A DNA stretch of 64,000 nucleotides, from the NCBI GenBank assembly GCA_026770705.1, contig JANJGN010000036.1:3906001-3970000 (forward strand). The letters are read 5' to 3'. The stretch is from Isurus oxyrinchus. Taxonomy: Eukaryota. Made by a program: the position numbers and the translations under genes. Below are positions 6,266 to 64,000 of the stretch, piece after piece. Position 1 is the first letter of the stretch; each line of letters starts with the position of its first letter. The notes beneath the pieces were generated by a model. That model did not search any database and was not told where the DNA came from. It saw nothing but the letters and a program-made list of their open reading frames with translations.

Positions 6266-6769
6266 TTGGAGAGGAAAGAGCTCACTGTCTGCTTCCCGAA
6301 CATGACGTGTTGTAGAAAGTTTCCTCTGTTGGGTGGGAAAGTCCGAAAATCCAACCGATGCAAATTCAGGCGCATTCTCGGCGCAATTTTGGGATGTCGC
6401 CGAAAGCGTAAACTGAATAATCACTTAATGCCCGCTATTCTAACGATGAAATATCGCCCGCAGTTCCACGCTAGCAACTCCAGGTTTCTATTGAAGCTGT
6501 TCTGTTGAAGGGTCATGAGGACTGGAAACGTCAACTTTGCTCTTCTCCGCCGATGCTGCGAGACCTGCTGAGTCGTTCCAGGTATTTATGTTTTTGTCCA
6601 GGTTTCTGTTACCTGCTTTGTTATGGCATTTTGCATCTTTATTCAGTATGTCAGCAAGAAATTATTTGAACAGGCTTTACAATGTAAAGCCACAATGAAA
6701 TTGTCGCTGCGTTGATGTTCCTATCATTTTGGTGATTCCTTGATGATTAAACCCCTGCCTGTGCAGTAG

Positions 6770-29112: not shown

Positions 29113-32100
29113 TCATCTGCGACACGTCTTCTTTTTTGATCTTTTATCCAATGCAGCCAAGTCCAGGGAGGCGTAGAGAGGTCCGCCTTCTGTCTGGGAG
29201 ATATTTTAAAAATTAAAAGCGAAAACTACTTAAAAGACAGGTAGCATTACCCACCCCCGAAACCGCATTTCAAAGTGCCATGGAATAATAGCGCACAGGC
29301 GGAGGCCTTTCGGCCCAATGTGTCTGCGCCAGCGCTTTCAAAAAGCAATGCATTTAGTCCCACTGCAGCCTTCTCTGACCACATATCGTTGCCATTATTT
29401 TTCAAATTTCTTCCTGAAATTTGCAGTTGAATCGGTTTCTATTGCCCTATTAATCAATTTGATGAATGTTTTGCTTCATTTGCAAGAATTGTCTGAATTG
29501 AAGTTTTGCAATAGGGCATCAGAATTCGGAAAGCGACTGGAAATCATCAAAGTTCAATCAGAAAATTGGGATGATGAGTCTATCAATTTGATTGGATTCC
29601 TGTGTTTTTAAATAGTCAATCCGATTATGGTGTTTCGCCCTGTGTCATCTGCACGATTGAGCAGAGCCCACAGAATTCATCACATTCAGAAGAATCACAA
29701 AACACAATCAAAAGACTTGTATTTATGTAGCGCCTGTCACGAACTGAAGAAGGCTTAAAACATTAACATCCACTCCTTTTCAGTGTCGCCTCCGCCCGTA
29801 ATACAGCGCGGCAGCTAATTTACGCACAGCAAAATCCCATAAACAGCAATGGTAGATCATTTATTTTTTAACATGCGGATTGTGAGATAAAAATTGAAAC
29901 CGAACACCAGGGAGAAACCCCCCGCCCCGCCCTCATCCCCGCTCTTCTTCTCCCCTACTTCTTGCAATACTGGAGGTACTATTTTTATGCCAAACTAGGT
30001 GGGCAGACAGGGCCTCGTTTTAACTTTCCATGCGAAATCGGTGCTTCAGGAAGTGCAGCATTGGCTCCGGAGGTTCAGTCTAGACTTTCTGCTGAGGTTT
30101 CTGAACACACACACACACAGACAACACACACGCGTACACTTTCTGACCAAACTGCTTCCTTCTTATTCCACATACAACAGAAAAACATTTTCATTTATCC
30201 ATAAAACTCTCCTGGGTTTGGTTTTATCTTCATTATAATTCCATTCGCTGAGGCATTTACTAAATCAGCATTGTCGCAGGGGAGACAAAGGTGCGAAACG
30301 AGGGAGGAGAATTAGGCACGCTGCAGAGATATAATGAAATAGCGGAAATCTAAAATATGAACTGCTGTAAATCCGCTGTTTAGCCTGATGGAAACATTGT
30401 ACCCGGAAATTTACACTATCCTTTCTATTATCAGGTGGAGAGAGGGGTAGGGGTATATTTTCAGCATCCAGTTAGAGGGACGAGAGGAACTATACACACA
30501 TTCAGACATTCTAGACTGTGGCCTGCTCTCTGATCAATGCGTGAATTATCCAGCATGGGAAACCTTGCAACTTATCCCAAAAAACAAGTTTTTTGTACCT
30601 TATTAAAACATTTTTTTTAAAAAAAACTCACCGGTATTGCATCCCGATGTTGCTGCCTTCCCTCTGTTTGACGGTGGTCACCTGTGTTATTAATGGTTGA
30701 GATACAAAATTAAATGTTATCCCAGTCTCACTGATTCATAATTATTGTGGATTCACCGTTCGCCAATGATGTGCCAATCTACCAATTGCCCCAACCGTCA
30801 CTGGGTCCCATATGTCAGCAGGCCCCTTATCCACGGAAGGTCCCCCAATACATCTGTGGAGTAAATTTGCCAAAGGTTGGACAAGCACCCACCGTGCCTG
30901 GCGTCTATTGTCCGTCTGATATATTGCTCCCACTATTAGTGACCAGTAATTGGCATTTAATATGAGACAGCAGAGTGATTGTGAGCAATTTGATGGCGGA
31001 AAATGCTCATAGGTAACTTTACAATACCACCGACTTGGCATTTAATCTGTGCCAACATTTCAATGCAACTTACCCATTTGTCGCTCATTCTGCCCCTCTC
31101 TTTGCCTTCTCTCTCTCAAGCTAAACCTGGACGAGAACAAAAATATCAAACCTATGTTAGTTTTGTAAATCCTGACGCAAGATCCAGAAATAGGTGAAAA
31201 GAGAATTGCCGAGTGGCCTTAGCATCAACCTTTTTAAAAATCATTGAAAATGACAGCATCTACCATTGGAATTAGTGTTGTGGTTGAACTGGGTTAGACC
31301 CAGTGTAAAATGTAGAGTTCAGGATGAACTTTTCAAATGGTTCAGTTACTCACTTTTCATTGTGGGATCTCTTGTCTCGTTCTCCTGAAAGCAGAAATTA
31401 AATTAGCAATTTACATCTACGACAAGGGGATCAGATTAGGCAAACACGTATGAAAATATCCCTGGTAAATATTAATCCTTACCTGATCTGCCACTTTTAA
31501 GAATCCAAATGGAAATAAGGACCAAGAGTAGAACCAGTATCACCAGGACAGTTACGAGAAAAGTAAGGGCCTGAATGCACCATCCTATGGAAACAAAACA
31601 CTTAGAAACTGCTGCTCAGTCAAGTCATGCTTTTCTGCGATTGTCTGATGGGAACAAGACCAAAAATTAAGCACAGAAGCAGCCCATTCGGACGATTGTG
31701 CCAGTGAATTCACTCTGAAACAGCTATCTAATTAGTCATATTTTCTATGTTCTTCCCCCAATATCCCTGAAAATGCCCTTCCATCAGGTATTTATGCAAT
31801 TCCCCTTTGAAAGTTATTTTTTAATGTGCTTCCACCGCCCTTTCAGGCAGCGCCATCCAAATCGCAAATTGCTGCGTTAAAACAATTATCCTAATCTCTC
31901 TCTGGTTGTTTTGCTGATTCTCTTCAATCTGTGTCCCTCTGGTAAACGAACCTCCTGCCAGGGGAAATAATTTCTCTTTATTTACTCTATCAAACCCCCT
32001 CATGATTTTGAACGCCTGGGTTAAATCTCCCCCTCAAACTTCCCTGATCTAAGGAGAACAATTCCAGAATCTAGAGTCTCTCCACATTACCTGAAGTCCT

Positions 32101-33694
32101 CACCCCTGGTCCCATTCTGGCAAATCGCCTGTACACCCTCCACAAAGCATTCTTGGCTGTCTCCTGCTTGTAAAGTGCATCCAATGTAGAACTGACCTCA
32201 ATTTCATTCCAAGATCCACTGCCTGAAATGGGTGGTTGAAATAGATCCAGCAATAACTTTCAGAAGAGAAATCACAGTCTAACTTGAAGAGAATAAGAAA
32301 ATGTGACAGTGTTGTGGGGAAAGGTTGGATCCAATCTTAGAAAGAAATAGCCCAGGCGCGATGGGCCGAAATCCCTCTTTCCGCATCTATCGTTCTGGGA
32401 TTCTACGATGTGACAGAGAAATAGAAGGCAAGCCCAAAAATTGTTTACAAGGACAAGTCTACACCTGGGGCTAAAGTAACTCAAAATTATTTTAACAGAA
32501 ATATAAACTGTATATTTACCGTTTAATTTACAGCCTACAGTTTCTAAAAATTAACTATTTTCTCCAATTGAGTTTCAAGTCGAATAAAAGCCGAACAGAT
32601 CACCAACTCACCAGTCCATGTCCCTGCTGCTTTGGAGAACGAAACGCTCTTTGTCAAATACTTGTTTGGAGATCCCAGTTGAACAATACAAGTACAGAGA
32701 CCGCCTCTTCTCCAAGTTTCCCTTGACACCATGACATGATTTCTGATGCTGTAGGTCCCATCTGCCTCCATTGTACCGGGATCGCTCGGACCCTCGGTGA
32801 CCAGGCCGGAAATATTCCAGAAAATAGCAACCTGGTTTGAAGAAATTCCGCTGACCAAACACAATAAGGGGATGGTTTCATTCAAATGCAGTTCACCCGG
32901 CGGGACAAACACCAGCACAGCCGTCTTGTTGGTGGAACTGTCTGGACAGAGATTGGGACACAGTTAACGATCGATTTGCGCCAAATGATAATGCTGTGCA
33001 TGATCTGAATTCATTTCACTTGCTCTCTTACCTCCAACAAGTAGCCTGGGTGCACTCTGGAGCGGTGCATAGCCATGCTTATCAGCACAGTAGTAGGAGC
33101 CCGAGTCACTCAACTGGACATTGCGAATTTTCAGTATCAATTGATGTTTGTTGTTGCCTTCCTTAGAAATAAACTTACAATTGGCCCCCTGACAGGACTG
33201 TGTGTCGATTAGTTTCGGGGCTTCACCCACACGTTGTTTGTACCAGAAATAGCTGGACACCAATACCACTTCGTAACTGTAGTCATAGGTAAGTTCCACT
33301 GTTTGTCCGACTTCAGCTGTCATTATGAAGGGTCTCTGAGATGGAGAGGAATCCGATTCTGTAACTAGAGGAGTTATTTTTACATTACTATTGGTTAATG
33401 AGAGATCGAAAATAGAAGCTTTTAAAGACTTCGCCTGTTAATTTAGAAAATCGACCTCATTGTCTTAAATGATTCATGGTTAGAGAAATTCTCCAATTTG
33501 ATTCCTTAGCTTTTTCGGAGGAACCAGTAAATAAACTGACAGGATCAGGTCAAACCTGGCCACTGGATCATATTTTCAGCTGAGCAAACATTGAATCTGG
33601 TTGATTCCTGTTTAAACTTCTCACCCGCCTCTTCCTCACCGTAAACCTGCAGCGCTTGGAAAATGAGTATCAGAAACAAGGATTCCTTGGACAT
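29113..33694 (-). CDS. Gene D: type II V-C1-TM receptor, inhibitory-like. Exons 33694-33640 leader, 33364-33032 V, 32941-32612 C1, 31584-31483 TM, 31384-31354 cyt1, 30681-30632 cyt2, 29193-29113 terminal
   Basis: MSKESLFLILIFQALQVY/VTESD..FWYKQ..DSGSYYC/DSSTNK..LLCLVSG..FWNISG..DGTYSI..CTCIVQ/GWCIQALTFLVTVLVILVLLLVLISIWILKSGRS/../TEGGPLYASLDLAALDKRSKKKTCRR*. All sites are GT-AG. The V B-strand Cys is Tyr, and the 31-nt cyt1 exon shifts the frame. Confidence 0.8.
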
Positions 33695-35659
33695 CTTGAC
33701 GCGGTGAGTTCTCCCTGTTTTCGGTCTCACCAGTTAGTTTGTGCGGGCCGACTGTCCGCCGACCGACCTGAGCTCACTCCCAGTGAGTTGCTTCCTTCTC
33801 GGATGCGGTGGAAATTATGACGAGCTCTGCTGTGGAAAGTATGACACCACTTTGGGTGCAGGGTCCTGGTGAATCTCACATGCGTTTCACTTATTGTGGT
33901 CACCGTCTGTGCGTCACAGCGGTCAAGTGCTAGCATTTCTATAAGGAGCTTTACTGAGTTCTCGCTCAGATGGAGTGGCAGAATAATGATTGTATAGATG
34001 CATGCTGAATATTACTGTTAAAGTTTCATTCAAGTTTAACCGTCCCCAGTTGTCATTGAGAAGGTGGCGGTGAGCCAATTTTAAAAAATCTCTTTCAAGT
34101 CGCTCCTTGTCTTTATAGAAAAGAGCCCCAGGTTATTCAGTCATCCCTGTTAGATTAACCTCTCAGCTCTGATAACAGCCTCGGAAACCTTGTTTGCATC
34201 GTCTCCAGTACCTCAACATTCATTTTTAGAAAATTGAGTCCCGAAATGTGCGCAGTTAGTCCAAATGTCGTCTGAACAAGGTTCAATAGACGAGCATAAC
34301 GCCCTTGTTTTTCACTTATATTCCTCTGCCCATGAGGCTTGGTGCTGATTTGCATTTTCCCAGTTAAGGTCACAGGTAATTGCATCAAAGAGAACTTCCA
34401 ATATAATTACTCACAGGGCGAATGAACCAATCCTTTAATCGGCGTCAGAAACAAACCAGGACCTGAGGGCAAGATAAGAGCAAAATTCTGCGGATGATGT
34501 AAAGCTGAAATAAAAACCGAAAATACTGGAAAAACTCAGCAGGAAGACTCGGAAGATGGGTCATAGGGACTACAAACGTTAGGTCTGTGTTGGTTCCAGA
34601 GCAGCAAAGTTTTTCGAGCAATTTCTGTTTTTAGAGTTGCTGCCAGACCAGCGGATTTTTCCAGAATTTTCCATTTTTATTTCCGAACCTGAAGCCTCTG
34701 TTTACCGGGTTTATATTTAGATCCTGGACGGGGATCGCACTCCCACATTTCTGCTGTCGAGTGAGCGGCAGAACCGGCTCACATCGCCCAACGGCCATAA
34801 CAGTGGACATGACTCATGCCCCAATAAGGAAGCCATTTAAACCCCGAATCCATAAGGAGATTTTTCCTTGTCTGCAATCTGTTAGTAACCTCGGGAATAA
34901 ATATTTCTGACGTTCGCCATTCCCAGAGGAATGTTGCAGATTTACCTAAAGAGTCTCGTTAGGGTTTAATGGAAACTAACTCTCAGCGGGAATTCAGCAC
35001 AAGCCGGACAGAGAGATTATCCTAGAATCTGTAATGAGAAAATCCTTCATGGTAGTGAAACTGAGGGACAATGGGCGAAAGGTTTATAATAATCTGATAT
35101 AAATACAAACCTCCTTGATCTTTTGCTGAAGACAAGATTCTGCCAATTTATGTGTATCCGTTGATCGGATGTGAAGGTCGGGAGGAAAGGGCAGCGTTTA
35201 TGGCCATCCCTAAATGCCCCTTGAGAAGCTGGTGGTGAACCGCTTTCTTGAACAGTTGCAGTCCCTGTGATAAATACACAACCACAGTGCTGTTAGGGAG
35301 GGAGTTCCCGGATATTGACGCAGAGACAGTGAAGGGATGGCGCTTTAGTTCCAGCTGAGGATAGTGTTTGTGTTGGAGGGTAATCTGAGGTGGTGGTGCT
35401 CACGTGTTCCCTATCTCATTGCCCTACGAGACGGTGGCAGCCTACGCGATTGGTTGCAGTGCTGTCTGTGTATAGATAGTGCAAACTGCAATCTCCCTGA
35501 GCCTCTGATGAAGCCAGTGCATCAATTTTGAATCATATTCGGGATCATTTTTTTTTCAAATATCGGGCATCGCAGATATACAGTGACCTGGTGTCAGGTC
35601 GGTGAGGATACTGTAAATGTACACCAACCTGTTCTCTGTTCAGTTGAATCTGCCCCGAC

Positions 35660-35960
35660 GCCAAAGCCTCTTCTGTCTGCGGTTTAACATTGAGTCAAAT
35701 GCAGACGGTTCTATACATTAAGCGCCTCAACTGTAAAAACAGGAAAACGACCGAGAGCTTCTGGGTCGAACATCATTTTCCATCTCAAGCGAAAGGCGGT
35801 CACAATCTCGGCCAGCGATTTGCGTCAATCGATGTGATTTGCACAGCCCCTGAATGGGCTGTGAGCGAAGCGTCTTTCTGAGACTCGCAGCAAACAGCAG
35901 CGGTCACAGCCAATGCGTCTCTTTGCTGCCCAGCCCCGCTCTCTGCTGCAAGGTTCACTG
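35660..35960 (+). other. Conserved element upstream of D, homologous (inverted) to 48400-48690 and 49790-50090; possibly a decayed V exon
   Basis: Direct sequence similarity. Translation SSVCG-LTLSQMQTV..RLNC..SFW resembles a V-domain N-terminus. Confidence 0.4.
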
Positions 35961-38900
35961 ACTCGCTTCTTTGTAATTCAAATACAAGCATTTCTGAAGA
36001 ACAGTTCAGAAACTCAGTAAAGCGCAACAATGTCAGCATATTTATGAACACATTCTGACAGTACTTCACTCTACCAGGTTCCTCACACTAATGTGTCTCG
36101 CTCTTCTCGCCCAGCTTGCGCCCTTCAACATTTTCCTGAAAAATCCCTTGACATGGGTTCCTGTGGAGTCTTGCAGACAATTTGCAGCACGGATTTGCTG
36201 CTTTTACTTTATCAGAGGTTTAAGGTTCCCATAAGGGAGTCCCATAAAAGAGCGATTTGACCCAGCAGCAGTTTCTAAGTTATTTGTCTCGGTCGGGATG
36301 GTGCATTTTGATCCTTGGCCATAACTGTCACTATTATTCGGGTTCTACTCTCCATCCTCACTGAGATTTGGATTCAAAAAGCGGTTGATCTCGTGAATAT
36401 TGGTGTTTAACAGGTGCATTTTAATTGGTGTTTCTTTGAATTGCATTGATTTTAAATATGAATTGCAGTTTACTGATTCAGAAAGCCGAGCGAATATCTG
36501 CCAAAGGAAAGCGAGTAACTGAGCTAGTTATGAAAGTGTATCAATAACCACCTGGCTCTATTTAACACTGAATCTAAACCAGTTCAAACCAATTACCCAT
36601 TCGTATGGTAAAGATATTTTAACATGTTCCACGTTCTTTTCAGATTGATTCTGAGACCAATCAACAATTCCCATCTCAATACTTAATTTAAGTGACCAAA
36701 AATTAAAATATCATAAAAAATAGGAGCAGGAGTCGGCCCTCGATCCTGCTCCGCCATTCAATAAGATCTTGGCTAATCTGGTTGTGGCCTCAAGTGCACT
36801 TTCCTGTCCATAATCCTAGGCCTGCTTGTCCATCAGAAATCCGCCGAACTGAGCCTTGAATATATTCGATGGTCCGGCCTCCAGTGCTCTGTGGAGAAGG
36901 GAATTCCAAAAAACTAACGATCAACAGAGAACAAAAATCGCACACATCTCTTTCTTCAATGGAAAACCACTTATTCTGAAACTTTGCCCCTTGTTCTTCA
37001 TTCCCGCATGAGTTGAAACATCCTCTCAGCATCTACCCTCTGAAGCCCTCTCAGAATCTTATATGTTTTGATAAATTCACCTCTCATTCTTATATTAACA
37101 ACCAGCAATGCTTTTTTGATATTTTTGCCTGTATGTAGTTTGAGCTGGCAATGAATATTTCTCCGCGTTAACAGAGGGCATTAGGAATTTACAATGAACA
37201 TCTTCATTTGCACCCCAATCGCTTTTATCGCTCTATCTGGAAACTCGCTGTCACCGAACAATAGAAACATATTTCAAGGCTTAGGGAAATATGGCTTCGT
37301 CAGACTCTTCACCCAGGAATGCATTTGGCTGTACTGAAAATGCATCCAATGGGAAGACGGGAAGGGAGGGAGAACTCAAATTGATTCTTTCAGGTTTCCA
37401 AAGGGGTCCATTGTTGGAGGGGTCACTTAATTTAGTTAAGTTTGTTTGGCCGGAGAGAGAGAAACTATTTCCTACCGTGGATGGGGAGCATGTGCGTGGC
37501 GTGGGTTGTGGGGTGTGGGGTTAAATAAGTTCAAAGTTGGGCAGTCCGTCCAAGGGTGATGTCCAGCAGCAACCCTCCCCCCTCCCCACCCTATCAAAGG
37601 CATGACTGCTAGGACGATAAGCTGTTGTGCGCTACTGAAAACATGATGTGCGGTGAAGGCTCAGACACTTCAAGACATCTGCAATTGCAGGTTTATAGCT
37701 GAATAGCACAGGTCCTTTTTTAAAATCACACACTCCACAGTCACCTTCACCTTGAGGAAAGCCTTTCCATTGGATAATGTCATAATCGCTGTCTCTCACA
37801 CACATCATGCGGATCCTCACTCACTTATACAGGTCAATTTTCCTGTGTGCGTGAAATGCTAACTCTTACCGATATATAGGACACAATGACCCTCTCTGTG
37901 TCCTTCACCAATCAGGGTGCCTGCTTCTCCATTTTGGTTTTCAGCACAAACACGTGTTTCAATGATCTATGTATGTAGTGACCCAGACATATTTCAGAAG
38001 GAAAGAAAGGGGATACATCATATCTTTAAAAATTCTTCCAAGTCTCTCTTTACTTGAGGATTTTATTTAAAAAAAATAAACGGAGAAGACATCACGTCCA
38101 GAGGAGCGACCGAGCTCCGGGAGGCAAGAGGTGACTGTGGGAGGGCGATAAATTATAGAAGGACATGAACGGCGTTAGAGCGGCCCTCTTTGTACAGGAG
38201 GGGAAACAGCAGCAGCCACAGTCTCAGTGAAAGGATCCCTGCTGTAAAACGTTAAACTCTGATGGAATTATTGCTCTCCTCTTGAAATAATGAGCGTCCC
38301 TTCGGAGCCCTGCTAAGATTTGGGAACTGCTTCAAAGACCCCCGATATAAATTCGCATCTGAGAAACAGCTCCACCGATAGTGCAACTTATTCTCAGTAC
38401 TGATAATGGGAGCATCATTCTTTGGAATGGGACATGAGTTTGAATGGCAGTGAATGGTGGCAAATTTGTGATCAATTTCCTGTTCTATATTAGCGGTAAG
38501 AAAGGAAGAAAATGGTGAGAAGGTATAACATGGGATAACCCATTCATCCCCTGATGCAGAATATCTTAATAGTTGAAATGTCTTACTCTTTTTAATAATT
38601 AGCCATAGGGTATGGATATCGCTGATAAGAAAAGTATTTGTTTCCCATTCCTAATTGCCCCTGAGAACGTGGTGCAGCACATGAATTGTTAGATAACCTC
38701 CCGATAGCTGGGTACCGTATGAAGTGTGGAAATGGGAAGATTTAAACTTTCGTTTAGACTGAGTTAACTGACCTCAGTGGAAGTCAGACAATCTAACTAG
38801 TTTTTAAGGGTGTTAAAGCACTCAGAGCGCTACATACAGTTTTGACGGAGGTTGAACTGTACTGCACTTTAACACAAAGTGGAGAAAACATGTTAGGTAC

Positions 38901-39759
38901 CTTAACATATCTTCTTAATAAAGTATCGTTTTTGGAAAACTAAAGCTTTACACTGACTGCAGCCGTTTGCTGTCCAATGTGGCGGTATTTAGTGTTTATC
39001 GCAGTGTGAATCCCTGGGAACTGCAAATAGAGCACACGTCACGGATGAAGCCCGGGATCTTTCTCGGCAAAGACCACGGCCTCTCTTTCCATAGTTGCTT
39101 CACAAAGACACATTGCCGTATTTAATCTGCTCTCCGTTTAATCACAATCCGTTTTATTCATTTCCTCCCCTCCCTGCTCTTTGTTTATGAAATTTGTATA
39201 GTGTGTAAACTTTTGGACCTCTGAACCGAAACATTAAGTCAGTGGGATTCATAGAAAGACAAAGGGTAAGTCAGGTCATTAGAAGACAAAGACCTATCTT
39301 GTAAATGTCAAATATATGTGTAACTGTGGTGAGCAATTTACAAAATTGGAAGAAACTAATCTTAAGTAATGTCAGATACTAAGGGTCGCGTAATGCACGT
39401 TTACAAAGTTTCATGAATGAAGTGTAAGGAAAAAATGACTTACCTGAAACTCCCTCAGCCCCTGACAAAGCCCCATGTCCCCTGTCTGTCCAAGTTTTCA
39501 AAATCATTCGAAGTTTTGCACATGCGTTTGCAAGGTTTTATTCATTGGTTTTGGGCTCAATGAAACATTGTTCATTTCTGTATCCCCTCCTTGGAAAGTG
39601 CACCAGGTTTAGTCCACTTGAAATCAGTTGCGAGCGGAAAGTTGGCTGTTTGGCCGTAAACTGGCTGCTGAAATTTGGAAATTGCAGCGCAAATGTGGTG
39701 GATTCTTTGGCAAATTCTGTCTCCCCCACAATCCATCGGAGAGAGTCCATCCCAGGTTC

Positions 39760-39840
39760 CCATCTGCGATCCGACTTATTTTTTGATCCATTTTCCAATT
39801 CAGCAAACTTCAGGGAGGCATAGCGAGGTCATCCCCGAAA
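39760..39840 (-). pseudogene. Orphan type II terminal exon with YASL motif
   Basis: ttccag|FRG*PRYASLKFAELENGSKNKSDRR is homologous to D's terminal exon and has an in-frame stop. No upstream exons were found. Confidence 0.7.
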
Positions 39841-40073
39841 CTGGAATATATTTAAAAACAACATTAAAAGTACGGAAAAGACAGGTCAGATTATCTGTCC
39901 GAAATTTATCAAAGTCCTTCCAGGTTTTTCTAAGCGCCCTGTTAAACAATGTTCAACTCTATCTGCACGCTGAATTTCTGGCAGCGTTGATGTTCCTGCC
40001 ATTTGATATTGATCTGATCCTGCCAATTGGCGAAATCCTGATAATTTCTCCACTGCTCGGATATTAACTGCGG

Positions 40074-40092
40074 TCCGCCAGCAGAGGGAGGG
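40074..40092 (+). promoter_or_regulatory. Candidate CTCF site (duplicate)
   Basis: CCGCCAGCAGAGGGAG. Confidence 0.35.
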
Positions 40093-40374
40093 CTTGTATC
40101 ACTTTAATCAAAAGATAGGGAAACATTCTTGTGGAGAAGAGGATTTGACCCTTTTTAATTCATTCATTCATTCACCAAGAGACAAATGATCACACCACCT
40201 CTGCAGCTTCTGACATGACTTGTGGCTTTTCACCTCCTATGCCAAGTCAGTTCCAGAACTGATTTTATTTTTTGCCCCCGGAATGGTGTTCCTCTTTAGT
40301 CATTGATCTGAGTTTCTTTTGAAGTTTAATATTGACAGCGGAAGCTGCGCCAAGAACATACATGGCGACGCCCA

Positions 40375-40545
40375 TACGAACAAACACACACAAACACAAA
40401 CATACAGGCACAGTGACACACTGCGACACACACACGCGCACACACCACGACACACACACACAGACAGATGCACACACACAAACACACACACACAACGACA
40501 CACACACAGCGACACAGACAGAAATACACACAGCGAAACACATGC
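40375..40545. repeat. Degenerate (CA)n microsatellite
   Basis: Visible directly. Confidence 0.85.
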
Positions 40546-44734: not shown

Positions 44735-45790
44735 TTGAGTGTTGTTGGAACTGCACTCATCCTGGCAACTGGAGAGTATGGCATCACACTCCCAACTTGT
44801 GCCTTTGAGATGGTGGACAGGCTTTGGGGAGCCAGGGGGTGAGTTACTCGGTGGAGGACTCCTAGCCTTTGACCTACTCTTGTAGCCACAGTATTTATAT
44901 GGCTAGCCCAGTTCAGTTTCTGATGAATGGCAACCCCAAGGATGTTGAAAGTGGAGGATTTAGCGATAGCAATGGCATTGACTATCAATGGGCCATGGTT
45001 AGATCATCTCTTGTTCGACATGATCATTGTCTGATTCTTGAGTGGCGTAAATGTCACCTCCCATATGTCAGCCCAAGCCTGGATATTGTCCAGGTCTGGT
45101 TGCATTTGGAAATGGGCTGTTTCAGATTCAGAGTTGTTGTGAATGGTGCTGAGCATTGTGCAATCATCAGCGAACATCCCCACTTTTGGCCTTATGATGG
45201 AAGGAATGTCATTGATGAATCAGCTGAAAATTGTTGGGCCGAGGACACTACTCTGTAAAATTCCTGCAGTGATGTCTTGGAGTTGTGATGACCAGCCTCC
45301 AACAACTACGACCATTGATATTTGTGCTCAGTATGTTTCCACCCAGCAGGAAGTTTTTCCCTTGATTCCCATTGACTCCAGTATTGTTAGGGCTTCCTGA
45401 TGCCACGCTCGGGCAAATGTTGCCTGGGTACCAAGGCCAGTCACTCCCCCATCACCTAGATGGCTCAGGTGTTTTGTCCATGTTTTAACCAAGGCTGTAA
45501 TGAGGTCAGGAACTGGATCCAGACTGACTGACAGTGATCAGGTTATAGCTAAGCAAGTGCCACTTGATAGCATTGTTGATTACCCCTTCCATTACTTTAC
45601 TATGGATGGAGATTAGACTGAAGGGGCAGTAATTGGCCGGGTTGGATTTGTCCTGCAATCTGTACTGGACATACCAATGATATCTTCTACATTGTCTGGT
45701 AGATGCCTCGGCTATACTATATTGGAGGAACTTGGCTATCCATGCAATTTCTGGAGCACATGCACAATTGTCGGAATATTGACAGCACTG
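44735..45790 (-). mobile_element. Degenerate LINE RT 3' fragment
   Basis: NPANYCPFSLISIHSKVMEGVIN; ILGVAIHQKLNWASHINTVATRVGQRLGVL. Confidence 0.75.
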
Positions 45791-47439
45791 CTTCACATCT
45801 TTCTGTTTGTGCCCATTTGTCTCTCCCTTTCTGTCATTTTTGATAACTGCATCACAGAATTTTCCACCCCTGCTCACACCTCTCGTTCCTCCCCTCCCTC
45901 TCTTCCATTAGACCTTTAGTTCGCTACTTCTTCATCTCTCTTTCTCTTTCTCAGTGTCTATCCTTCTCTCTCTCTCGGTATCTCTACTCCCAGTTTTTTT
46001 TTTTCCAGGTGTTTCACTCCCTTTTATTTCTCTGTTACTCTTAGTTCTGTCATTCTCCCTGGATTTCTCTGCTCTTTGTCCCTCTGGTTGTGGGAGAAGT
46101 AAATTCAGTGCCATGGTATTGTGTAGCTGATAAATGTATCTCAATCCTCCTGTTATCCATCTCCCCAAAGTTTTATACCCATTGAGTGGTAGCAACAGAA
46201 GCAGAGAGGTGAAAATGAGGGGCTGGTTCTCGAGCACCCGGGTGAGAAATTTTATCGAGTCAAGGTCTATCCCAGTGTTCTCTTTCTCTCTCGATGTGCC
46301 ACCTCATAGACTGTGTCTGCCTCACTTTCTAAAGGGGAATGTGGGTGGGGTGCCAAAAGGCAGATCAGCCATGACCTAATATTATAGCGAAAGTTTCAAA
46401 TGAGCAGAATGGCCTCCCCCTGCTTCTGTGCAAAGTTTGTGTCTGTATTTCTAATGTCCTCGGGAGGGCAATAGGAGTGGGGTTGAGGGGTGATCGGGGT
46501 GTGGGAGATGTGGTTGGTGTTGCTGGAGGTAGGGGCGTTGGTTGGTGATCACTAGGACAAGGATTTGATTATGATTTGGAGCCCAGGAAAGCGTTTTCCA
46601 CAAAGGACAGGAAAGATTGTCACCGCCTGAAGGATTATGCGTGAAAGGACATATATTGGGGGCGGGAGGAGGCAGGGAGTGGGTGGGGGGAAATTTTACA
46701 GTTGGCGGGAATTATACTGTGGGGGCGGGGGGCGGAGGGGGGGTAACTGAGAGCACTGTGCGACTTAATTCTCAAAACTGTTGGATTCCTTGATGCACCA
46801 GCAGTATTACTAAGGAGCAGGAAACGATCATCCCCAATTGCCAAAAACACAAAACATCCATTGTGTCTGTAACTAGAAGTCCAGTGGGTATATCTATACA
46901 ATTAGAATATTTACATTTAATAATGTCCATGATATGAAGTTACATTAGCCAGACAAAAAGTTGTGTAGTGATTTTTTTTAAAGCGTCTAATAGAAGGAAG
47001 GATTACATTAGCTGCTCGTTTTCAGAGGGCGGAGAAACATTTGCACGAGTTATGTCGCTATTTATTTACCCAATGTTGCTTTTTGTACGTTTCTCATAAA
47101 TAAGGAGCCATGCTCAATTTTAATTTGTTTATTTTGTCTAAATACCTTTGTTTTCGTTTCCCTTGAACTTTGATGAACAAATCAGTCAACTTTCAGACTT
47201 AGACAAAACCTTCAACGTTGCAACTTTTAACTGCAGAAAAGACGACATAATCTTTCCAATACCTGTTGTGTTTGTACTTTTTTTTTTCTCTTAAAGCAAT
47301 GTTTAAGCTTCTGTGTTTGCAAATTAACCTCATAGGGAAAGGGTCTTTAATATATATCTTTAAGCTGTAAAAGAAAACACTACTTTTTACACTCTAGTCA
47401 AATCAAAGCAGCTGCCTGAGGAATGTGCCATGCCTCTGA

Positions 47440-50100
47440 ACACAAACACACATACAAACTCAGTCATACACGCACACATTCACGAAAGAAATCATACAAA
47501 GATGCAGCCTCTCTCCTTCACACACACAGGCGCACTCACAAAGGCAGACACATACAAACACACACACACACATAGTTAGTCACAGACATAAACAGACAGA
47601 CACAGTCACACACATAAACAGACACACTTAGTCACACACACACACATAAGCACACACACACTTACAGTCACACACATGAACAGACACACACTTAGTCACA
47701 CATGCACACACACACAAACACACACACACACACAGGCAATATATATCCTTTAAAATTCTGAGCTGCACTTTGAAAAATAATTTTTTGACCATTTAACACC
47801 ATTGTGGAGTATGCTAGGTTTACAATTATCTATCGACTGTACTCCAAACTTGCCATCTCTTTCTGTTTCTATCGCGCTACCTGTGCATCTCTATCTATCT
47901 CCATGCCTCGTTTTCTCGTTATCCATGATCAGGAGAAACTTCTTTACTGAGGGTCTGCGGGGAATGTGGAACTCGCTCCCACAGGGTGTGGTTGAGTGAA
48001 TAGCGAAGATGCATTTAAGGGGGAAGCTGGATAAACACATGAGCGAGAAATCAACAGAAGGATATGTTGATAGGACTGAGATGAAGAGGTGGTTGAAGCG
48101 ATCTCATGTGGGGTATAAAAACTAGGATGGTGAAGTTAGCCGAATCGCCTGTTCCTGTGCTGTACGTTCTGTGTAACCCTTTGCAAGTTGAAACGAACCT
48201 ACATGAATTGCCATGTTCAGGGGCACCATGGAACTTGAGCGACATGAGCGAGAAATATTAACCTTAATATGAAAGCCCTGATATAATGAATTAGTGCCAG
48301 AATTGGTTCTGAGTTCAGGTGAGAATGTTGTGGCAGACTGTATATCAGAACTGCTTCTGCAGATGTGCTTGGCCGTATGTGACGACTAATCCAGCCAGGG
48401 GAAATCAGACAGAAGGACAGCGTGGTTGACAGCAGAGGCTCACTGATTATAGCCTGGCTGTTGCAGTGAACCAGCCAGAGGCACCTCTTTCACATACCAC
48501 TGCGATCGGAGTGTGAAAGGTACATCGAGTGGTGGAGGTCGCTGGCCTACATTCTGAAAAACTAGCACTTAACACGTAAAACAATGTCCCAGCCAGAGGC
48601 CCATGTGGTTTCCCTCGCTTCACAATTCAGGCGCTCACCGGCAGAACTGTCTGCAAAGTTGCGGCAGCATAACTCAATGTCCCAGATTCAATTCGCCGTG
48701 TTATTGGGTTGTTGGGTGTTTTTCGTGTTAAATTTATTCCTCTCCAAATTAAGCTTTATTTACAGAAACCAGAAACTACATAGACGTTTTTTTTCCATGA
48801 GATTTTATTTTTGAAGGTAGCAATTTGATTACCCACTTAAAGTCCAGGTCAATTTCCCTTTCAGTGCTTGAAATAACAACTCAGATCAATTTATTACACT
48901 CTTTCAAATTTCAGAAACAGTTATGCCTAGGCTTGTTGGCTTTAACTGTGATTTTATATCAGAGACACACAGGCTTACAGATAATGTCCACATATACAAA
49001 CACATACACACACATACACACAGAGTCAGTGACACACATAAAGGCAAACACACTTACAGCCACACACATAAACCGACACACACTCAGTCACACGCACACA
49101 CACACACATGGATTCAGTCACACACATAAACACACACACACTTTTAGTCAAACATATACACACACACACCATACATAAACCTTAAAATACTGAGCTGCAC
49201 TTTGACAAAATAACTTTTGACAATGTAACATTATGTTGAAAAATGTTAGGTTTAGAACTATCTGCTGTATCCCAAACTTGCCATTTCTTTTTGTTTCTTT
49301 CGTGCTATCTGTGCATCGCTATCTGTATCTATCGTTATCTATGGTCAGAAGAAACTTCTTTATTGAGGCAATGGGGAGAATGTAGAACGCACTCCCACAG
49401 GGAGTGGTTAAGGTGAATAGCGAAGCTGGATAAACACACGAGCGAGAAAGGAACAGGAGGATATGTTGATGGGGGATGAGTTGAAGAGGTGGTAGAAGCG
49501 ATCTCGTGTGGCGCATAAACACTAGCATAGGTCAGTTAGCCTAATGGACTGTTATGTGCTGCACTTTCATTGTAACCCTTTGCAAGTTCAAACGAACTGA
49601 ATTGCCATGTTCAGGGGCGGTATGGGAATTGGGCGACATGAGCGAGAAATATTCACCTTATTCTGAGAGACCTGATATAATGAATTAGTGCTGAATTGAG
49701 ATGAGAATATTGTGGCAGATTGTATATCAGAAATGCTTATGTAGGCATTCTTGGCCTTAAGTGACGACTAAGCGAGCCAGGGGAATTCAGACAGAATATC
49801 GCGAGGTTGACAGCAGAGGCTCACTGACTATATCCGCGGCTGTTGCTGTGAACCAGCCAGAGGCGCCTCTCTCGCACACCATTGCGTTTGGAGTATGAAA
49901 TGTGCATCGAGTGGCGGAAATCGCAGGCCTATATTCTGAAAACCTTGCGCTTAACTCGTAAAATAATACCTCAGCCAGAGGCCCCCTGTGGTTTCCCACG
50001 TTTCACAATTCAGCCTCTCACTTGTGAACTGTCTGCAAAGTTCCTGCAGCGAAACTCAATGTCAAACCGCAGGTACAAGAGCGTTTGTCAGAGGGCCAAT
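47440..50100 (+). repeat. Tandem direct duplication of ~1.4-1.5 kb units (~47440-48700 and ~48965-50100)
   Basis: Each unit has a CA-rich tract, ctgagctgcactttga, a LINE tail, ttgccatgttcagggg and the conserved element. Confidence 0.8.
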
Positions 50101-50139
50101 TCATAGAATCATAGGATGCTTACAACAAAGACACAAACA

Positions 50140-50142
50140 AAC

Positions 50143-50186
<44 letters not shown>
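50140..50186. repeat. (CA)n microsatellite
   Basis: Visible directly. Confidence 0.95.
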
Positions 50187-50188
<2 letters not shown>

Positions 50189-52107
50189 ACATTGCCCCCG
50201 GGTCAGGTATCTTCAAGAGAAACTGATTGAAAGTGTCTCTTCCACGTGACAGCGAGCCTTGCTTATCCGTATTGGTCGGTGTTTGAAAAGGATTAACTGA
50301 TGCCCAGTTTTTATTCCCAAATGTTGTGCCCCCATGATCGGGCTCAGGGGTATTACAGTGCACACACTATCTGCTCACAGGCAGCACTGAAACAACGCGC
50401 CAAGGCTGCCACTGCCCAGAAAAACAAGAGCAGCAGACACATAGGAACAGCAACACCTGCAAGTTCGACTCCAAGTCGCACAACATCCTGACTTGAAATT
50501 ATACCATCGATTCTTCACTGTCGCTGGGTCAAAAACGTGGAATTCCCTACCTAAGGGCAGTGTTGGTGTGACCACAGTACATTGGCTGCAGCGGTTAAAG
50601 GAGGCTAATAACAGATTGCAGACATTTAAAACAGAAATGACGTGGATTTTTTTTCTCTCAGATATTCGTGAATATTTGGAACTCTAGAAGGTGCACACAG
50701 GATTTTTAATGATCATGCCGGAGGTGAGAGGTTAAAACGATCAAGAAAGTCTGAACAGCCTGGGACCCCCTCTGGAAAAGAGGAGGCGAGGGGGGGAACT
50801 GATTCAGCTCTTAACATTGTTAACATTCTGACATTGTTGCAGACGGTAGAGGTAAAGAAAGCATTTTCATTTATGGCGACGGCAGAATTAAGTTTCACCA
50901 TTGGGAGATATTCACTAACAACACCAGTACGGAATTCAGGAGAAACTTCATTAGCCGAAGAGTGCGGAGAATCTGGGGCTCGCTATCTTAGAGAGTAATG
51001 GGGCTGAATAGCAGATATGCACTTCAAGGGGAAGCTGGATAAACCCATGAGGGAGAAAGGAATAGAAGCATGTTATGTGCTTGAGATGAAGAGGGGGTGA
51101 GTGGGGGCTCACGTGGAGCAAATACTCCTGCACAAATCCAGTTGAGCCAGTTCCTCTTCTGTAATTTCTATGTAAGTCAACAAACTATAACATCCAAGGG
51201 GCTGAACATGTATTGCTAAATAAAATGTCATCACTATGCAATGACATTTACAGTGAACTGTTATGGCGGACATGAGACTAGTCATTAAAATTCAAAACAA
51301 CCGCACGCCGTTCATCCCAAAATTCCCAGTCTCTGTGTAAAGCAGGTTGCAACAGAATCTTGAATAACCACTTCACAGAATAGATTGCACTCAGTAATAT
51401 TACATAATATTCTGTCTTCGTGGATTTCACCGTACAAGCCCTCGACCTATACAACCTAGAAAAAAAAGGACAGCAGATTTTTGGCAACACCAGCTGCTGC
51501 AAGTTCCTCTCCAACCCACACATCACACTGACTGGGAAATATATCGGCCTTTCCATCACTGTCACTGGATCGAAATCCTGGAACACTGAACATAAAAGCC
51601 TACACGAATGTGCCTACTCGACTTGAAATGCAACACCTCAAGAAGGCGTCTCATCACCACCTTTTCAAGGGGCAATTGAGGATAGGTAAACATTGCCAGG
51701 AACGCTCACACTTCTGGTAGGAAATAAAGAGTCTTAAACGTTAAGGGAAAATATTTTCATTCAGCACAATGACAAATGCAGGCATCCAAACCTTTTGTTT
51801 TCTGCATCCCTTTCGAGGCATTAGTAAAACTGTTTATTGATAGTCCGAATGGCGTCCTCCTGGGCCATAAACGACTCCATAACTTTTTACATTCTGGTAT
51901 TTGCAGGTGTTTAATCGCAAATATGTAAAATTCATGAGGTATGAGATCCATCAGCACACCGCACGCTAAATGGTTGATTCGTCATCGTTCCCACCTCATT
52001 TGAGAGTGCACCAACTAACTGGGAGTGAGCTCAGGTCAGTCTGTGGTCACTTCACCTGCAGGAACAGACTTGTAAGGGTGCAAATAGGGAGAACTCAGCG
52101 CGTCAAT

Positions 52108-55100
52108 ATGCCCAATATATATGTATCTCTGATGCTCATTTTCCAAGTGCTGCGGGTTTCTGGTGAGTAAGAGGCGGGTGAGAATTTTAAATTTGAATCA
52201 GCCAGAATCAGTTTTTACTAAACTGTAAATGTGATCCAGTGAACAGGTGACGATGTTTGACCTGATCATGGGTATTTATTTTCTGGTTCTGCCAGCAAAT
52301 TAGTGAATAAATCTAACCTAGAATAATTAAAGACAACAATGTGACTGTTGTTAAATTACAGGTGAAGACTTTCAAATCGACTACCTTCTGATACTCTGTA
52401 ACCAGTGGTAATGTCACAATGATCTCTCTAGTTACAGAATCCCAGATACCCGTGTCTCAGAGCCCCTTCATAATGACAGCTGACGTCGGAGAGACGGTGG
52501 AAATAACCTGTCACTACACTTACGAAGTGGAATTGGTGTCTAGCTATTTCTGGTACAAACAACGTGTGGGTGAAGCCCCGAAACTAATCGCCAACCATTC
52601 CTGCCAGGGGCCCGATTGTAGGTTTATTTCCAAAAGAGGCAACAGTGAAAATGTGTTGATTCTGGAAATTCGCAATGCCCAGATGAATGACTCGGGATCC
52701 TATTACTGTGCTGATAGGTATAGCTATGTACCGCTCCTGAAAGGGCCCATACTACTGGTTGGAGGTAAGTGAAATGAATTCAGATCATGCACAATATTAT
52801 AATTTGTTGCAAATTAATCGTTAACACTGTCCCAAACTCTGTCCAGACAGTTCCATCAACAAGACGGCTGTGCTGGTGTTTGTCCCGCCGGGTGAGCTGC
52901 ATTTGAGTGAAACCGTCCCCTTAGTGTGTTTGGTCAGTGGGGTTTCTTCCAACCAGGTTGCTATTTTCTGGAACATTTCCGGCCTGGTCACCGAGGGACC
53001 GAGTGATCTAGGTACAATGGAGGCGGACGGGACCTACAGCATCAGAAGTCACGTTATGGTGTCGAGCGAAACCTGGAGAAGCGGCAGTGTTTTTAACTGT
53101 ATTGTTCAACTGGGGTTTCCAGGCAAATATTGGACAAGGAGCATGTCGTTCCCCAAAGCAGCAGAGAAGCGGACAGGTGGGTTGGTGAACTGTTCAACTG
53201 AGCATTCATTTCAGATTTGGCGCAATTTTTAAGATTCCAAGAAACTGCACTCTGTGAATTAAACATCTCTACATGATAAATAGACGAGTGTGTANNNNNN
53301 NNNNNNNNNNNNNNNNNNNNNNNNNNNNNNNNNNNNNNNNNNNNNNNNNNNNNNNNNNNNNNNNNNNNNNNNNNNNNNNNNNNNNNNNNNNNNNNNNNNN
53401 NNNNNNNNNNNNNNNNNNNNNNNNNNNNNNNNNNNNNNNNNNNNNNNNNNNNNNTCTATCATATAAGAAAACATGTATTCATTTTGTTGAAATAAGTCTG
53501 AGTTACCACAGTTTCTCGATTTGCCTGATATTTACGTGAGAATTCTCAGAATCATAGACACAGCACAGAAAGGAGCCATTCTGCTATTCAACTAGTCTCA
53601 CCCATTTCGCTGTTCCTTCATAATCCCCTTTATAATCCGATTTCCCTGTTCAAAGTTATTTTCGAATCTGCTTCACCCATCTTTTCAGACAGTGGATATT
53701 GGAGTTAAATTGAGATTAGGTCGACACAGAATGAGTTTATGGGAAGAAAGCAGTGAAGAGATAAAATTCTTTTGAAAATGAATGCATCCCCGCAGGGATG
53801 TGACTTTCGTTCAATCTCATCACCACCACCTCGCCCTCTCAAACCGACCGTCCCCTTCTTCATTTCTTGGGACCTTTCTTATCATTCCCTAGTTGGCTGG
53901 TAAAATTCAGATTAATTTTAATTACACTTGGTGATATCAGCAGCCGGATTAACATTAACATCGGGTTATGAAACTTTAATGAATTTGGATTATTCGAAAC
54001 TCTCATGATGCAGGTGATGAATGAAGGAGGCAGGGAAGTTGAATTGGCCGCTAAAAGACGTATGAAAACTTTGGCTTCATTAATAGAGGGATAAAATGCT
54101 GCGGGAAGTTATATTTTATTAATACCTGGACAGAACCCTGCTGGAGTATATTTTTCCAATTCCAGTCACAGTACTTTTGGAAGAATATAAATGCCTTTGA
54201 GAGGCTGGGGAAGAGATTTACCAGAATGGGACCAGGGATCAGAAACTTCAGTTAATGTGGAGAGAATGGAGAATCTGGCATTGTTTCCCTTAGAGCAGAG
54301 AAGATTAACTGAGGATTATAATTTGAGGGACAAGTGAGCACAAAATGTCAAAAGCATGAATGGTTTCCATAGAGGAAATAAGGAGTAATCTGTTTCCACT
54401 GGCAGAAGACAAAGCCGGAGATGTGGTGATTATGTATTCTTTAGACACAAAGAGCCAGCACAAACACGATGGGCCGAACTGCCCCAATGCTTGGGCCGCA
54501 GCTATTCAGAATCTATGGACGTGGGGACGAATTGTAATATTTCCAAATGTGTTGAGGACAGAACTCTTGGTGGGAATGTAATTTGTGAAAAGGATGCAAC
54601 GAGGCTACAAGGGGGATTAGGCAGGCTGAGTGAATTCACAAGAAAATGGTAGATGGAATATAATGTCAACAAGTGTGAAGTTATCCACTTTGGTAGGAAA
54701 AAAACAAAAAGGGTAGTATTTCTTAAATGGTGGGGCATTGGGAAATGTTCATGTCAAAAGGGGCCAGAGTGTCCTTGTTCACGTGTCACTAAAAGGCACC
54801 AAGCAGCTTCAGCAAGCTGCAGCAAGCAACTAGGAATGTAAATAGTATTTTGGCCTTCATTGCAAGGATATTTGAGTATAAGATGAAGATGTCTTGGTGC
54901 AATTGCATAGAGCATTGGTGAGTCCGCAGTTGGAGTATTTTGTACAGTTTTAATCTCCTTATCTAAGGAATCATGCATTTGCCATGCCAGGAGTGCAACA
55001 GAGGTTCACCAGACTAATACCTGGGATGGCAGGATTGTCAGATGAGGAGAGATTGAGGAAACTGGTTCTGCCTCCTGTAGAGTTTGAAATAATGACAGGT

Positions 55101-56312
55101 GATATAAATGAAAGTTACAATTTTTTACAGGTTGATGCTGTGTAGATGAGGATAAGATATGTTTTCTGCTGCCTGGTGGGTCGAGACATCGGCAGCATGC
55201 CGACAGCATAAGAAGCAAGCCATACAAAACTGTGATGAGGAGCAATTTCTTCAGTCAGACGGTGGTGATGTTTTGGAATTCTCTATCACAGAACGCTGTG
55301 AATGCTCAGTTCCTGAGCGTCATCAAGAAAGGTGTCAATAGATTTCTGGATGCTAATGACATCAAGAGATATGGTGATAATGGGAAATTGGCGTCAGAAA
55401 TCGTCTATCAACCATGATCTGTTCAAATGGAGCAGCAGGCTCGACGGGCCGAAAGGCCTGCTCACGCTCCTACTTCCCCTATACCTCCTCTTGTGCTGTG
55501 TCATTCTGCGATTCTATAATTCAGTTTTCAGATAGACATTGTTATGATGTTTTCATACTGATAACACTGTAATTACAGCGCTGTCATTCCATTCATCTCA
55601 ATGAGCGAACAGTGTGTCATTTATCCCATTCTGTGCGTCTACTCGTCGCTATCAGCCCCCCCGGCTGTGTGTTTTTTTTTTTTCACTTCATACCTGCATT
55701 TAATAATCCGGATTTTTCAATGGGCAAGCTTAACATGACAGAATTCCAGAAAATAATGATTTAGACGAGCATCAGTTTCTAAGCATTTTGTCTCTGCAGG
55801 ATGGTGCGTCCCGAAACTGAACTTTGTCCGAATGGTGGCGTCGATCCTAGGGCTACTTTTGACCCTCATATTAATTTCCACGCACAAAAGCGGCAGATTA
55901 GGTGGGGGTTAACATTTGTCGAGGCGATTTTCAGGACTGTTTCCCAATTTGATTCCCTTCTCGTGGTTTGAAATCTCTAATTACAGTTTCTGATTACAGA
56001 AAAAAACAAGACAAGAGATCCCACAATGAAGAGTAAGTAACTGCACCATTTGCAAATTGTAACCCGAACACTCTATTTAGCACTGGATAAAATCTAGTTC
56101 AACCCCATTACTCGCTCCAATGATATGTGCTGACATGTTTCAGAACCTGTCCTGCCTTTTAGCTATTTTCTGAATGACAATGTTCAATATATTTTCCAGT
56201 CTCAGGGTGGAAATCTCCACGCCTCCCTGGACTTGGCTGCTTTGGAAAAAGAGGTCATAAAAGAAGGCTGGTAGCAGATGGGAATCTGGGTGATTTCTCA
56301 CTCATGGATTAA
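52108..56312 (+). CDS. Gene E: type II V-C1-TM receptor, activating-like. Exons 52108-52162, 52432-52764, 52847-53176, 55800-55901, 56000-56032, 56200-56312
   Basis: MPNIYVSLMLIFQVLRVS/VTESQ..EITC..FWYKQ..DSGSYYC/..LVCLVSG..FNCIVQ/GWCVPKLNFVRMVASILGLLLTLILISTHKSGRL. Exon lengths 55/333/330/102 are identical to D. The cyt2 exon is missing and the terminal exon is entered out of its ancestral phase. The C1-TM intron contains an N-gap. Confidence 0.82.
53295..53453. other. Assembly gap
   Basis: N run. Confidence 1.
54560..55480 (+). mobile_element. CR1 LINE 3' fragment in the gene E C1-TM intron
   Basis: MEYNVNKCEVIHFGRK, FWNSL and the typical 3' tail gggccgaaaggcctg. Confidence 0.8.
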
Positions 56313-63751: not shown

Positions 63752-63999
63752 GCTAACCCGAGTCATTCACACGGATTTCTCGAATTTCCATAATCAATTC
63801 ATGTTTGCTGTTGCCTTTTTGGAAAAATCCTACAATCGGCCCACTGACAGGGAGGAATATCAGTTAGTATCGGATCTTCACCCAAACGTTGTTCGAACCA
63901 GAAATGAGTAACGGCAGTGAGAGGGTAGTTCCACAGTACCTCCGACTTCGTCTGTCATTATGAAGGGGCTCTGAGACAGAGAGGGCTCGAATTCTACAA
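63752..63999 (-). pseudogene. Gene F: type II V pseudo-exon truncated by a LINE
   Basis: Reverse complement reads VVEFEPSLSQSPFIMTDEVGGTVELPSH..(indel)FWFEQRLGEDP..CQWADC..NDSG*, then abuts the 3' end of a CR1 element. The leader would lie beyond the window. Confidence 0.75.
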
Positions 64000-64000
64000 C

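Follow-up and report, generated by a model that had tools for sequence, protein, structure and literature searches.

Genes D and E of Isurus oxyrinchus belong to a large shark family of V-C1 transmembrane genes with candidate inhibitory and activating types

We analysed a window of 64,000 nucleotides of the Isurus oxyrinchus genome (assembly GCA_026770705.1, contig JANJGN010000036.1, here C36, positions 3,906,001 to 3,970,000 of the forward strand) that holds two immunoglobulin (Ig)-type genes, D and E, which a preliminary description had presented as a paired set of inhibitory and activating receptors. Gene models were built with canonical AG/GT splice sites and frames without stops (Table 1). 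The model of D runs on the minus strand from 33694 to 29113, with eight exons and 345 residues, and that of E on the plus strand from 52108 to 56312, with six exons and 321 residues. The two genes lie head to head, with about 19 kb between their V exons. The resemblance that had been noted holds: leader, V, C1 and transmembrane (TM) exons are equal in length (55, 333, 330 and 102 nt), a V-set domain is followed by a C1-set domain in both proteins (Pfam), and the mature ectodomains are identical at 165/222 residues (74.2%).

Table 1. Exons of D and E and other elements of the window (positions in the window).
Feature	Position	Strand	Length (nt)	Remarks
D leader exon	33640..33694	-	55	ATG and GT donor
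D V exon, degenerate J-like end	33032..33364	-	333	Pfam V-set E 3e-10
D C1 exon	32612..32941	-	330	Pfam C1-set E 1e-7
D stalk-Cys and uncharged TM exon	31483..31584	-	102	best 21-residue hydropathy 3.3
D cytoplasmic exon 1	31354..31384	-	31	gene model
D cytoplasmic exon 2, no E counterpart	31074..31126	-	53	gene model
D cytoplasmic exon 3, no E counterpart	30632..30681	-	50	gene model
D terminal exon, phase 0, ITIM-like PLYASL; Tyr codon 29175-29173	29113..29193	-	81	motif kept in other sharks
E leader exon	52108..52162	+	55	gene model
E V exon, canonical Cys-Trp-Cys present	52432..52764	+	333	Pfam V-set E 3e-11
E C1 exon	52847..53176	+	330	Pfam C1-set E 2e-10
E stalk-Cys and NxxR TM exon; N247 codon 55820-55822, R250 codon 55829-55831	55800..55901	+	102	
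E cytoplasmic exon 1	56000..56032	+	33	length 32 in the older sisters of E and 31 in genes of the D type
E terminal exon, phase 1; former Tyr codon CAC at 56218-56220	56200..56312	+	113	
Broken relic TM exon between D and E	36257..36422	+		68% to D TM exon, no AG acceptor, in-frame stops
Orphan terminal exon of the family	39760..39840	-		YASL retained, stop upstream
Frameshifted V exon of next family member	63756..64000	-		cut at window end
Type II gene: VJ with intact FGxG, C1, Cys-TM, tail exons	1180..6280	+		probably damaged, having lost the Cys of C1 and the Tyr of the tail
Scattered broken type II gene pieces	10703-10901, 18605-18911, 23060-23644, 25549-25828			

The two proteins part at the membrane. 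The TM segment of D holds no charge and its tail ends in PLYASL (within GPLYASL), both found where they had been described. For E, a Lys and an Arg had been reported at the start of the TM segment, and only the Arg stood. Indeed, R250 is the fifth residue of the best 21-residue hydrophobic window, with 17 residues remaining before H268-K269, and it forms an NxxR motif with N247. Lys245, which 22 residues separate from His268, precedes the hydrophobic stretch and is replaced by Thr in 13/19 copies with NxxR, and we rejected it as a coupling residue for this lack of conservation. We thus take N247-x-x-R250 to be the conserved TM element of the E class. As this class is defined by the motif itself, its invariance in the 19 copies is not evidence; the copies of other species are. 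In a protein model of an NxxR relative from the epaulette shark, the TM helix (residues 242-269) takes in the motif (pLDDT 58-83 there).

E had also been said to lack one cytoplasmic exon. The absence was borne out but not the number, since two tail exons (53 and 50 nt) are gone and the distance from cytoplasmic exon 1 to the terminal exon is 167 nt, against 2160 nt in D. The terminal exon is, as reported, read out of frame: it is entered in phase 1, which leaves the HASL frame unread and the tail without Tyr. Three other splice outcomes (read-through of the TM donor, skipping of cytoplasmic exon 1 or read-through of that exon) give no tail Tyr either. An N stretch lies in the intron between the C1 and TM exons of E, and this assembly gap had been thought to cloud the link between ectodomain and TM segment. 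The linkage holds because three sister copies elsewhere on the contig carry the V, C1, TM, cytoplasmic 1 and terminal exons in the order of E and have the same intron free of N (2586, 2551 and 2545 nt), with 47, 132 and 130 mismatches to that of E (98%, 95% and 95% identity) over about 2460 aligned non-N bases. A mis-join across the N stretch was thereby ruled out.

D and E proved to be two among many. A search with the V exon of E, in which 150 of 937 candidates were scored, outlined a 3.5-Mb cluster of about 100 V-C1-TM loci on C36 (about 0.58-4.11 Mb); no family member was found in the 200 kb sampled on each flank. Sequence was retrieved for 80 loci anchored on V or TM; together with D and E these yielded 74 TM models, of which 49 are uncharged, 19 carry NxxR and 6 have Arg without Asn. 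All gene models have a single C1 exon. A further 19 loci were found with the TM region of E, all of them broken relics of the NxxR class; uncharged relics were not hunted likewise, so that the totals are biased towards NxxR relics.

A TM Arg and the in-frame tail motif were never seen together in the copies scored. When only loci whose TM could be read and whose terminal exon was located are counted (9 with a broken TM or a terminal exon beyond the fetched DNA were left out), an in-frame YxxL is present in 33/43 uncharged-TM copies versus 0/22 Arg-TM copies (Fisher p 5e-10 on the raw count, which overstates independence as the copies are related). The Tyr codon is altered in all 16 NxxR copies in which the terminal exon was found, being CAC in 8 and TTT in 8. 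The Tyr motif was lost by several routes: deletion of both middle tail exons, an indel in cytoplasmic exon 1 that brings a stop, a longer cytoplasmic exon 2 and change of the Tyr codon. Two more Arg-TM lineages, both without the Asn (L018, L026, L032 and L033; L046 and L080), are nested in the uncharged clade. These six loci all lack an in-frame YASL and only L046 has an open ectodomain; possibly they represent repeated drift to an activating form.

The same split was found outside this genome. We compared 59 database relatives, 44 of them TM-bearing by the threshold used, and the best matches were proteins of the basking shark and the white shark. YASL is present in 28/44 TM-bearing relatives, none of which has Arg at the NxxR position. 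Four others have NxxR in register and short tails without YASL; they belong to catshark, horn shark, epaulette shark and whitespotted bamboo shark. NxxR is also found in a second catshark protein, and an apparent NxxR in P0016 was rejected as out of register. One protein each of a sawshark, a stingray, a skate and a sturgeon has Arg without Asn and no YASL. For one catshark NxxR gene, RefSeq lists several isoforms, a hint that transcripts may support it.

We consider it likely that D and E are germline V-C1-TM genes of a large shark family in which the D type probably inhibits through a phosphorylated YASL and the E type probably activates through the Arg of NxxR together with FcRgamma or CD3zeta. 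In this scheme, leukocytes would be the site of expression, by analogy, and D-type and E-type chains may share related ligands. D-type chains would be phosphorylated on YASL and recruit SHP-1/SHP-2, as phosphorylation of an immunoreceptor tyrosine-based inhibitory motif (ITIM) leads to recruitment of SHP phosphatases. Arg250 of E-type chains would pair with the TM Asp of FcRgamma or CD3zeta and signal through the immunoreceptor tyrosine-based activation motif of the adaptor. The proposed split into inhibitory and activating forms therefore survives as a family-wide feature that recurs in four other sharks, while the idea of a special pair does not: with about 100 loci in the cluster, and L004 closer to E (77.4% identity) than D is (74.2%), we read D and E as ordinary family members rather than a private pair. 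As far as sequence comparison can tell, the paired-receptor architecture is real, older and far larger than first thought, and the presence of both types in several shark orders probably marks an old immune-receptor family, not a recent local pair.

For E itself our confidence is lower, and we lean only slightly towards its being a working receptor. It is possible, although we hold it rather improbable, that the paired set is real and E a silent or decaying copy whose frame by chance is still open. Several observations weigh against the reading favoured here. Among the NxxR loci examined, 35/38 are broken and 3/38 open, and in the V-anchored sample open genes make up 3/19 of the NxxR loci against 25/49 of the uncharged ones (Fisher p 0.012 on related copies). 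Two of the three nearest copies of E have a stop in V and, the E copies of the four head-to-head modules of D-like and E-like genes described below include two with a V stop and one with an 11-nt deletion in the TM exon. The C1 and TM splice donors of E are off-consensus. Values of dN/dS between E and open paralogues are 0.69 in V and 0.48 in C1 (the C1 comparison with L002 was excluded, as an indel misaligns it), but a ratio below 1 spans both branches and is no sign of present selection on E. One catshark NxxR isoform has a tail Tyr, at a splice junction. In D, Tyr replaces the B-strand Cys of the V domain (codon 33287-33285); this Cys is absent in 7/25 open uncharged genes, D included, and its absence in D may impair folding. 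The silent-copy reading has to contend, on the other side, with the six exons of E, all bounded by AG/GT, with its canonical Ig cysteines and uninterrupted reading frame, with the off-consensus intron-side donor bases being common to the sister copies, and with the open NxxR genes annotated in four other sharks. We slightly favour a working E, in a class whose activating copies would be short-lived and mostly die by birth and death. The V B-strand Cys is likewise lost at L004, L022, L023, L041, L042 and L044 and in the catshark protein P0019, and most V domains of the family carry an extra C-x4-C pair.

The coupling of E to FcRgamma is inferred from the NxxR motif. Three adaptor TM exons with Asp were found in this genome, one CD3zeta-like (L081) and two FcRgamma-like (L082 and L083, on separate small contigs and with the same peptide), which we presume to be zeta and gamma from known features of these sequences. 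A complex prediction of the TM peptide of E with two FcRgamma-like TM exon copies scored 0.03 and is evidence neither way. In the sections available to us of earlier work, NxxR TM segments are characteristic of receptors that associate with FcRgamma in Xenopus and mammals, and surface arrival of a Xenopus NxxR receptor required FcRgamma (PMC2413239, PMC6557307, PMC4536121). That the Arg chain instead uses DAP12 or DAP10, joins a partner chain of the cluster or is a tailless decoy is unlikely in our view. The activating NITRs, as presented in the portions consulted of PMC2442602, combine a TM Arg with Dap12; ray, sawshark and sturgeon relatives have Arg without Asn, and a second V-C1-Cys-TM subfamily (type II) is interspersed in the cluster. 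Nevertheless, Asn and Arg stand three residues apart near the outer TM end in five shark species, a layout reported for FcRgamma partners and unlike the DAP12-type TM of KIR2DS (PMC2413239, available parts), and the type II TM segments seen hold no acidic residue.

The inhibitory role of the D type meets a caveat already raised, namely that PLYASL falls short of the ITIM consensus by the Pro at Y-2 (definition as given in the consulted part of PMC2442602). Pro is indeed found at Y-2 in 16/16 galeomorph-shark proteins with TM and motif, and the tail has just one Tyr motif. PLYASL could accordingly be a trafficking (YxxL) or kinase-docking site and the D type not inhibitory, which we judge improbable. 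The caveat is weakened outside the galeomorphs, where 5 proteins of rays, 1 of a sevengill shark and 6 of sturgeons carry Ile or Val at this position, making the same terminal motif a consensus ITIM, and the motif is lost specifically in Arg-TM copies. Because rays, the sevengill shark and sturgeons have Ile or Val at Y-2, the YASL motif is likely an ITIM by descent, its Pro form being ITIM-like by the definition cited. Among the sturgeon V-C1-TM relatives (P0047-P0060, about 30% identity) are forms with a VQYASL tail, and one protein, P0056, has a short tail and a TM Arg, which hints at a paired design older than the split of sharks and bony fish.

How E came to differ from D was addressed by distances and trees. 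E is 66-77% identical to the open uncharged genes (n=25), and D is its nearest relative in no tree. Between E and D, silent divergence (dS) reaches 1.03 in the TM exon, an exon that offers few sites for this estimate, compared with 0.32 for V and 0.33 for C1; dS among uncharged TM exons is 0.19. Raw DNA distances agree: the TM exons of E and D are 0.37 apart, their V and C1 exons 0.13-0.17, and uncharged TM exons differ among themselves by 0.155; the introns flanking the TM exon are raised only slightly. In this genome the NxxR TM regions form one clade (support 100/99), while a clade of NxxR ectodomains is rejected (p-AU 1.5e-4), these being scattered over the tree. Across species, in trees computed without the database proteins P0030 and P0037, ectodomains group by species and an NxxR clade is again rejected (p-AU 3e-79), whereas TM exons group by class. 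The clearest case is given by epaulette and bamboo shark: activating and inhibitory ectodomains are identical at 214/218 and 212/218 residues within species (97-98%) and ectodomains at 202/218 and 200/218 between species (92-93%), while TM exons share 10/34 residues across classes within species versus 25/32 across species within class. Because ectodomains group by species and TM exons by class, we regard the NxxR TM exon as an old lineage with repeatedly swapped ectodomains, and its TM as older than the split of shark orders. Two results temper this view: class support in the cross-species TM tree is modest (80/74 on 33 columns that include the motif), and an intron-only tree gives two NxxR groups, with a single origin still possible.

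The swaps would come about by recurrent gene conversion or unequal crossover, each event linking the old NxxR TM exon to an ectodomain of the present repertoire. A comparable process, merohomogenization, in which ligand-binding parts are homogenised within a species and opposite signalling parts persist, has been described, in the portions of the source at hand, for mammalian KLR and PIR (PMC3210942), and the shark family shows the same pattern.

The D-E module occurs four times on C36 (about 2.20-2.22, 3.12-3.14, 3.87-3.89 and 3.94-3.96 Mb); the last two lie 64 kb from each other and agree at about 99% in V and C1, so that either the module was recently duplicated in tandem or the assembly holds it twice. 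The preliminary description had derived E by inverted duplication of an inhibitory gene resembling D, after which the Arg would have been gained, which the head-to-head arrangement, the fourfold co-duplication, the homologous TM exons and the strands (8/8 E-clade copies on plus, 44/49 uncharged genes on minus) would suit, but the excess TM distance, the trees, the occurrence of NxxR in other shark orders and its presence on both strands (10 plus, 9 minus in this genome) largely refute such a local origin, to which we give very little credence. An inversion probably founded the own subclade of E, to judge from its eight plus-strand copies, and D and E were later co-duplicated.

The family resembles the NITR, LILR/PIR, SIRP and APAR paired receptors but fails one defining feature of each. 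The leukocyte receptor complex (LILR/KIR/NCR1) has C2-type Ig ectodomains; it shares the NxxR TM with E (N247/R250), while the shark ectodomain is V-set plus C1-set. SIRPs, which in the ESM Atlas form the closest clusters that bear a name (ranks 6-7), share V and C1-set domains and the inhibitory/activating pairing. They are typically V-C1-C1 with a Lys/DAP12 activating TM, whereas the shark family has one C1, a stalk Cys and Arg in NxxR, its Lys245 being unconserved. Hagfish APARs resemble antigen receptors and are paired receptors of V(J) type that do not rearrange, with a single V domain and no C1; the shark family shares the non-rearranging paired V design and adds the C1.

Bony-fish NITRs likewise form a clustered multigene family with a non-rearranging V, and comprise ITIM or itim inhibitory forms and a minority of activating TM-Arg forms; their V domain ends in a J or J-like motif. 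By the parts consulted of the same source, their second domain is a six-cysteine I domain, while that of the shark family is C1-set, where E has 2 cysteines and D has 3, and Nitr9 uses Dap12 where the shark NxxR layout points to FcRgamma (PMC2442602). Of the J-like FGxGTxLxV, genes of the D and E kind (type I) keep at most G..L.V, the sturgeon relatives GxG and type II genes FGxG. A 2019 review, as far as accessible, treats NITRs as studied in ray-finned fish and as only possibly yet to be found in cartilaginous fish (PMC6795676). Among receptors with NxxR at the outer TM end, the accessible parts of PMC2413239, PMC6557307 and PMC4536121 name LILRA, PIR-A, NKp46, GPVI, OSCAR, FcalphaR, chicken ggFcR, Xenopus XFL, SLAM-like and ILR, all from tetrapods. 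As in the shark family, they have a short tail and are paired with uncharged ITIM forms; their ectodomains are not V-C1. Because the shark NxxR exon is homologous to the uncharged TM exon of its own family, the comparison suggests that the motif originated independently in sharks.

UrIg and UrIg2, shark VJ-C1 genes, share a non-rearranging single-exon V with C1 and automatic annotation as Ig light chain. As far as the consulted parts of PMC12227049 and PMC10751288 describe them, they have three or more C1 and no paired multigene cluster, whereas each gene here has one C1 and the roughly 100 loci fall into two signalling types; identity with them was rejected on the single C1 exon of all our gene models. 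The nearest folds of the family ectodomain are antibody light chains. Identity with an Ig light chain or T-cell receptor (TCR) was nonetheless rejected, in spite of database names and fold matches, as V and G strand lie in one exon spliced to C1. A loose scan for recombination signal sequences (RSS) hit 6/79 loci, and none of the three inspected had one at the 3′ end of V; an RSS-like site in E was rejected, as it overlaps the splice acceptor at the 5′ end of its V exon and 15/1000 shuffles also yield a match. We found no description of this shark family in the literature, the reviews PMC6795676 and PMC7916673 included, in a search that covered few subscription papers and no supplements, so that an earlier mention is possible.

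Type II genes have a VJ exon with intact FGxG, a C1, a stalk Cys, a TM and a tail of TLYARL type (TxYxxL), and are homologous to type I over 252 columns. Besides the gene of the window they were recognised at L086 and L097-L103 and among the proteins P0061-P0074; about 35 weak V matches lie on C36, 34 of them on the plus strand, and 8 were checked. In four other sharks, type II genes occur on same-length scaffolds as type I genes. Type II is a possible partner chain of type I. It is conceivable, if doubtful, that the cluster is a germline combinatorial TCR-like system, in which type I and type II would form disulfide-linked V-C1 heterodimers on shark NK-like cells and exchange for an NxxR type I chain would flip an inhibitory receptor into an FcRgamma/zeta-activating one. 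Were this so, sharks would offer a present-day model for antigen receptors of the time before RAG, and NxxR would have evolved independently. With a view to synteny with bony-fish NITR clusters, 150 of 251 open reading frames around the cluster were scanned; two could be recognised, a TLR13-like gene and a copy of a ribosomal-protein gene. The former (L132:6858-9779, minus strand), a single-exon Toll-like receptor of 974 residues whose nearest solved structure is TLR13 (E 1e-78), lies about 110 kb off the left cluster end. The latter, of a 60S acidic ribosomal protein (L140:7361-7750), and retroelement remains (L141, with integrase and protease Pfam matches below cut-off) also lie on the left.

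The value of these observations lies in the whole family and not in D and E alone. Its members, which databases list under such misleading labels as "immunoglobulin kappa light chain-like", are built as V-C1 like a chain of an antigen receptor but do not rearrange, and they would extend the NxxR/FcRgamma module to cartilaginous fish. The epaulette shark offers a clean within-species test pair, with 214/218 ectodomain residues identical and opposite tails. The cluster described here provides a large candidate family for the germline receptors that keep activation and inhibition in balance in shark innate cells.

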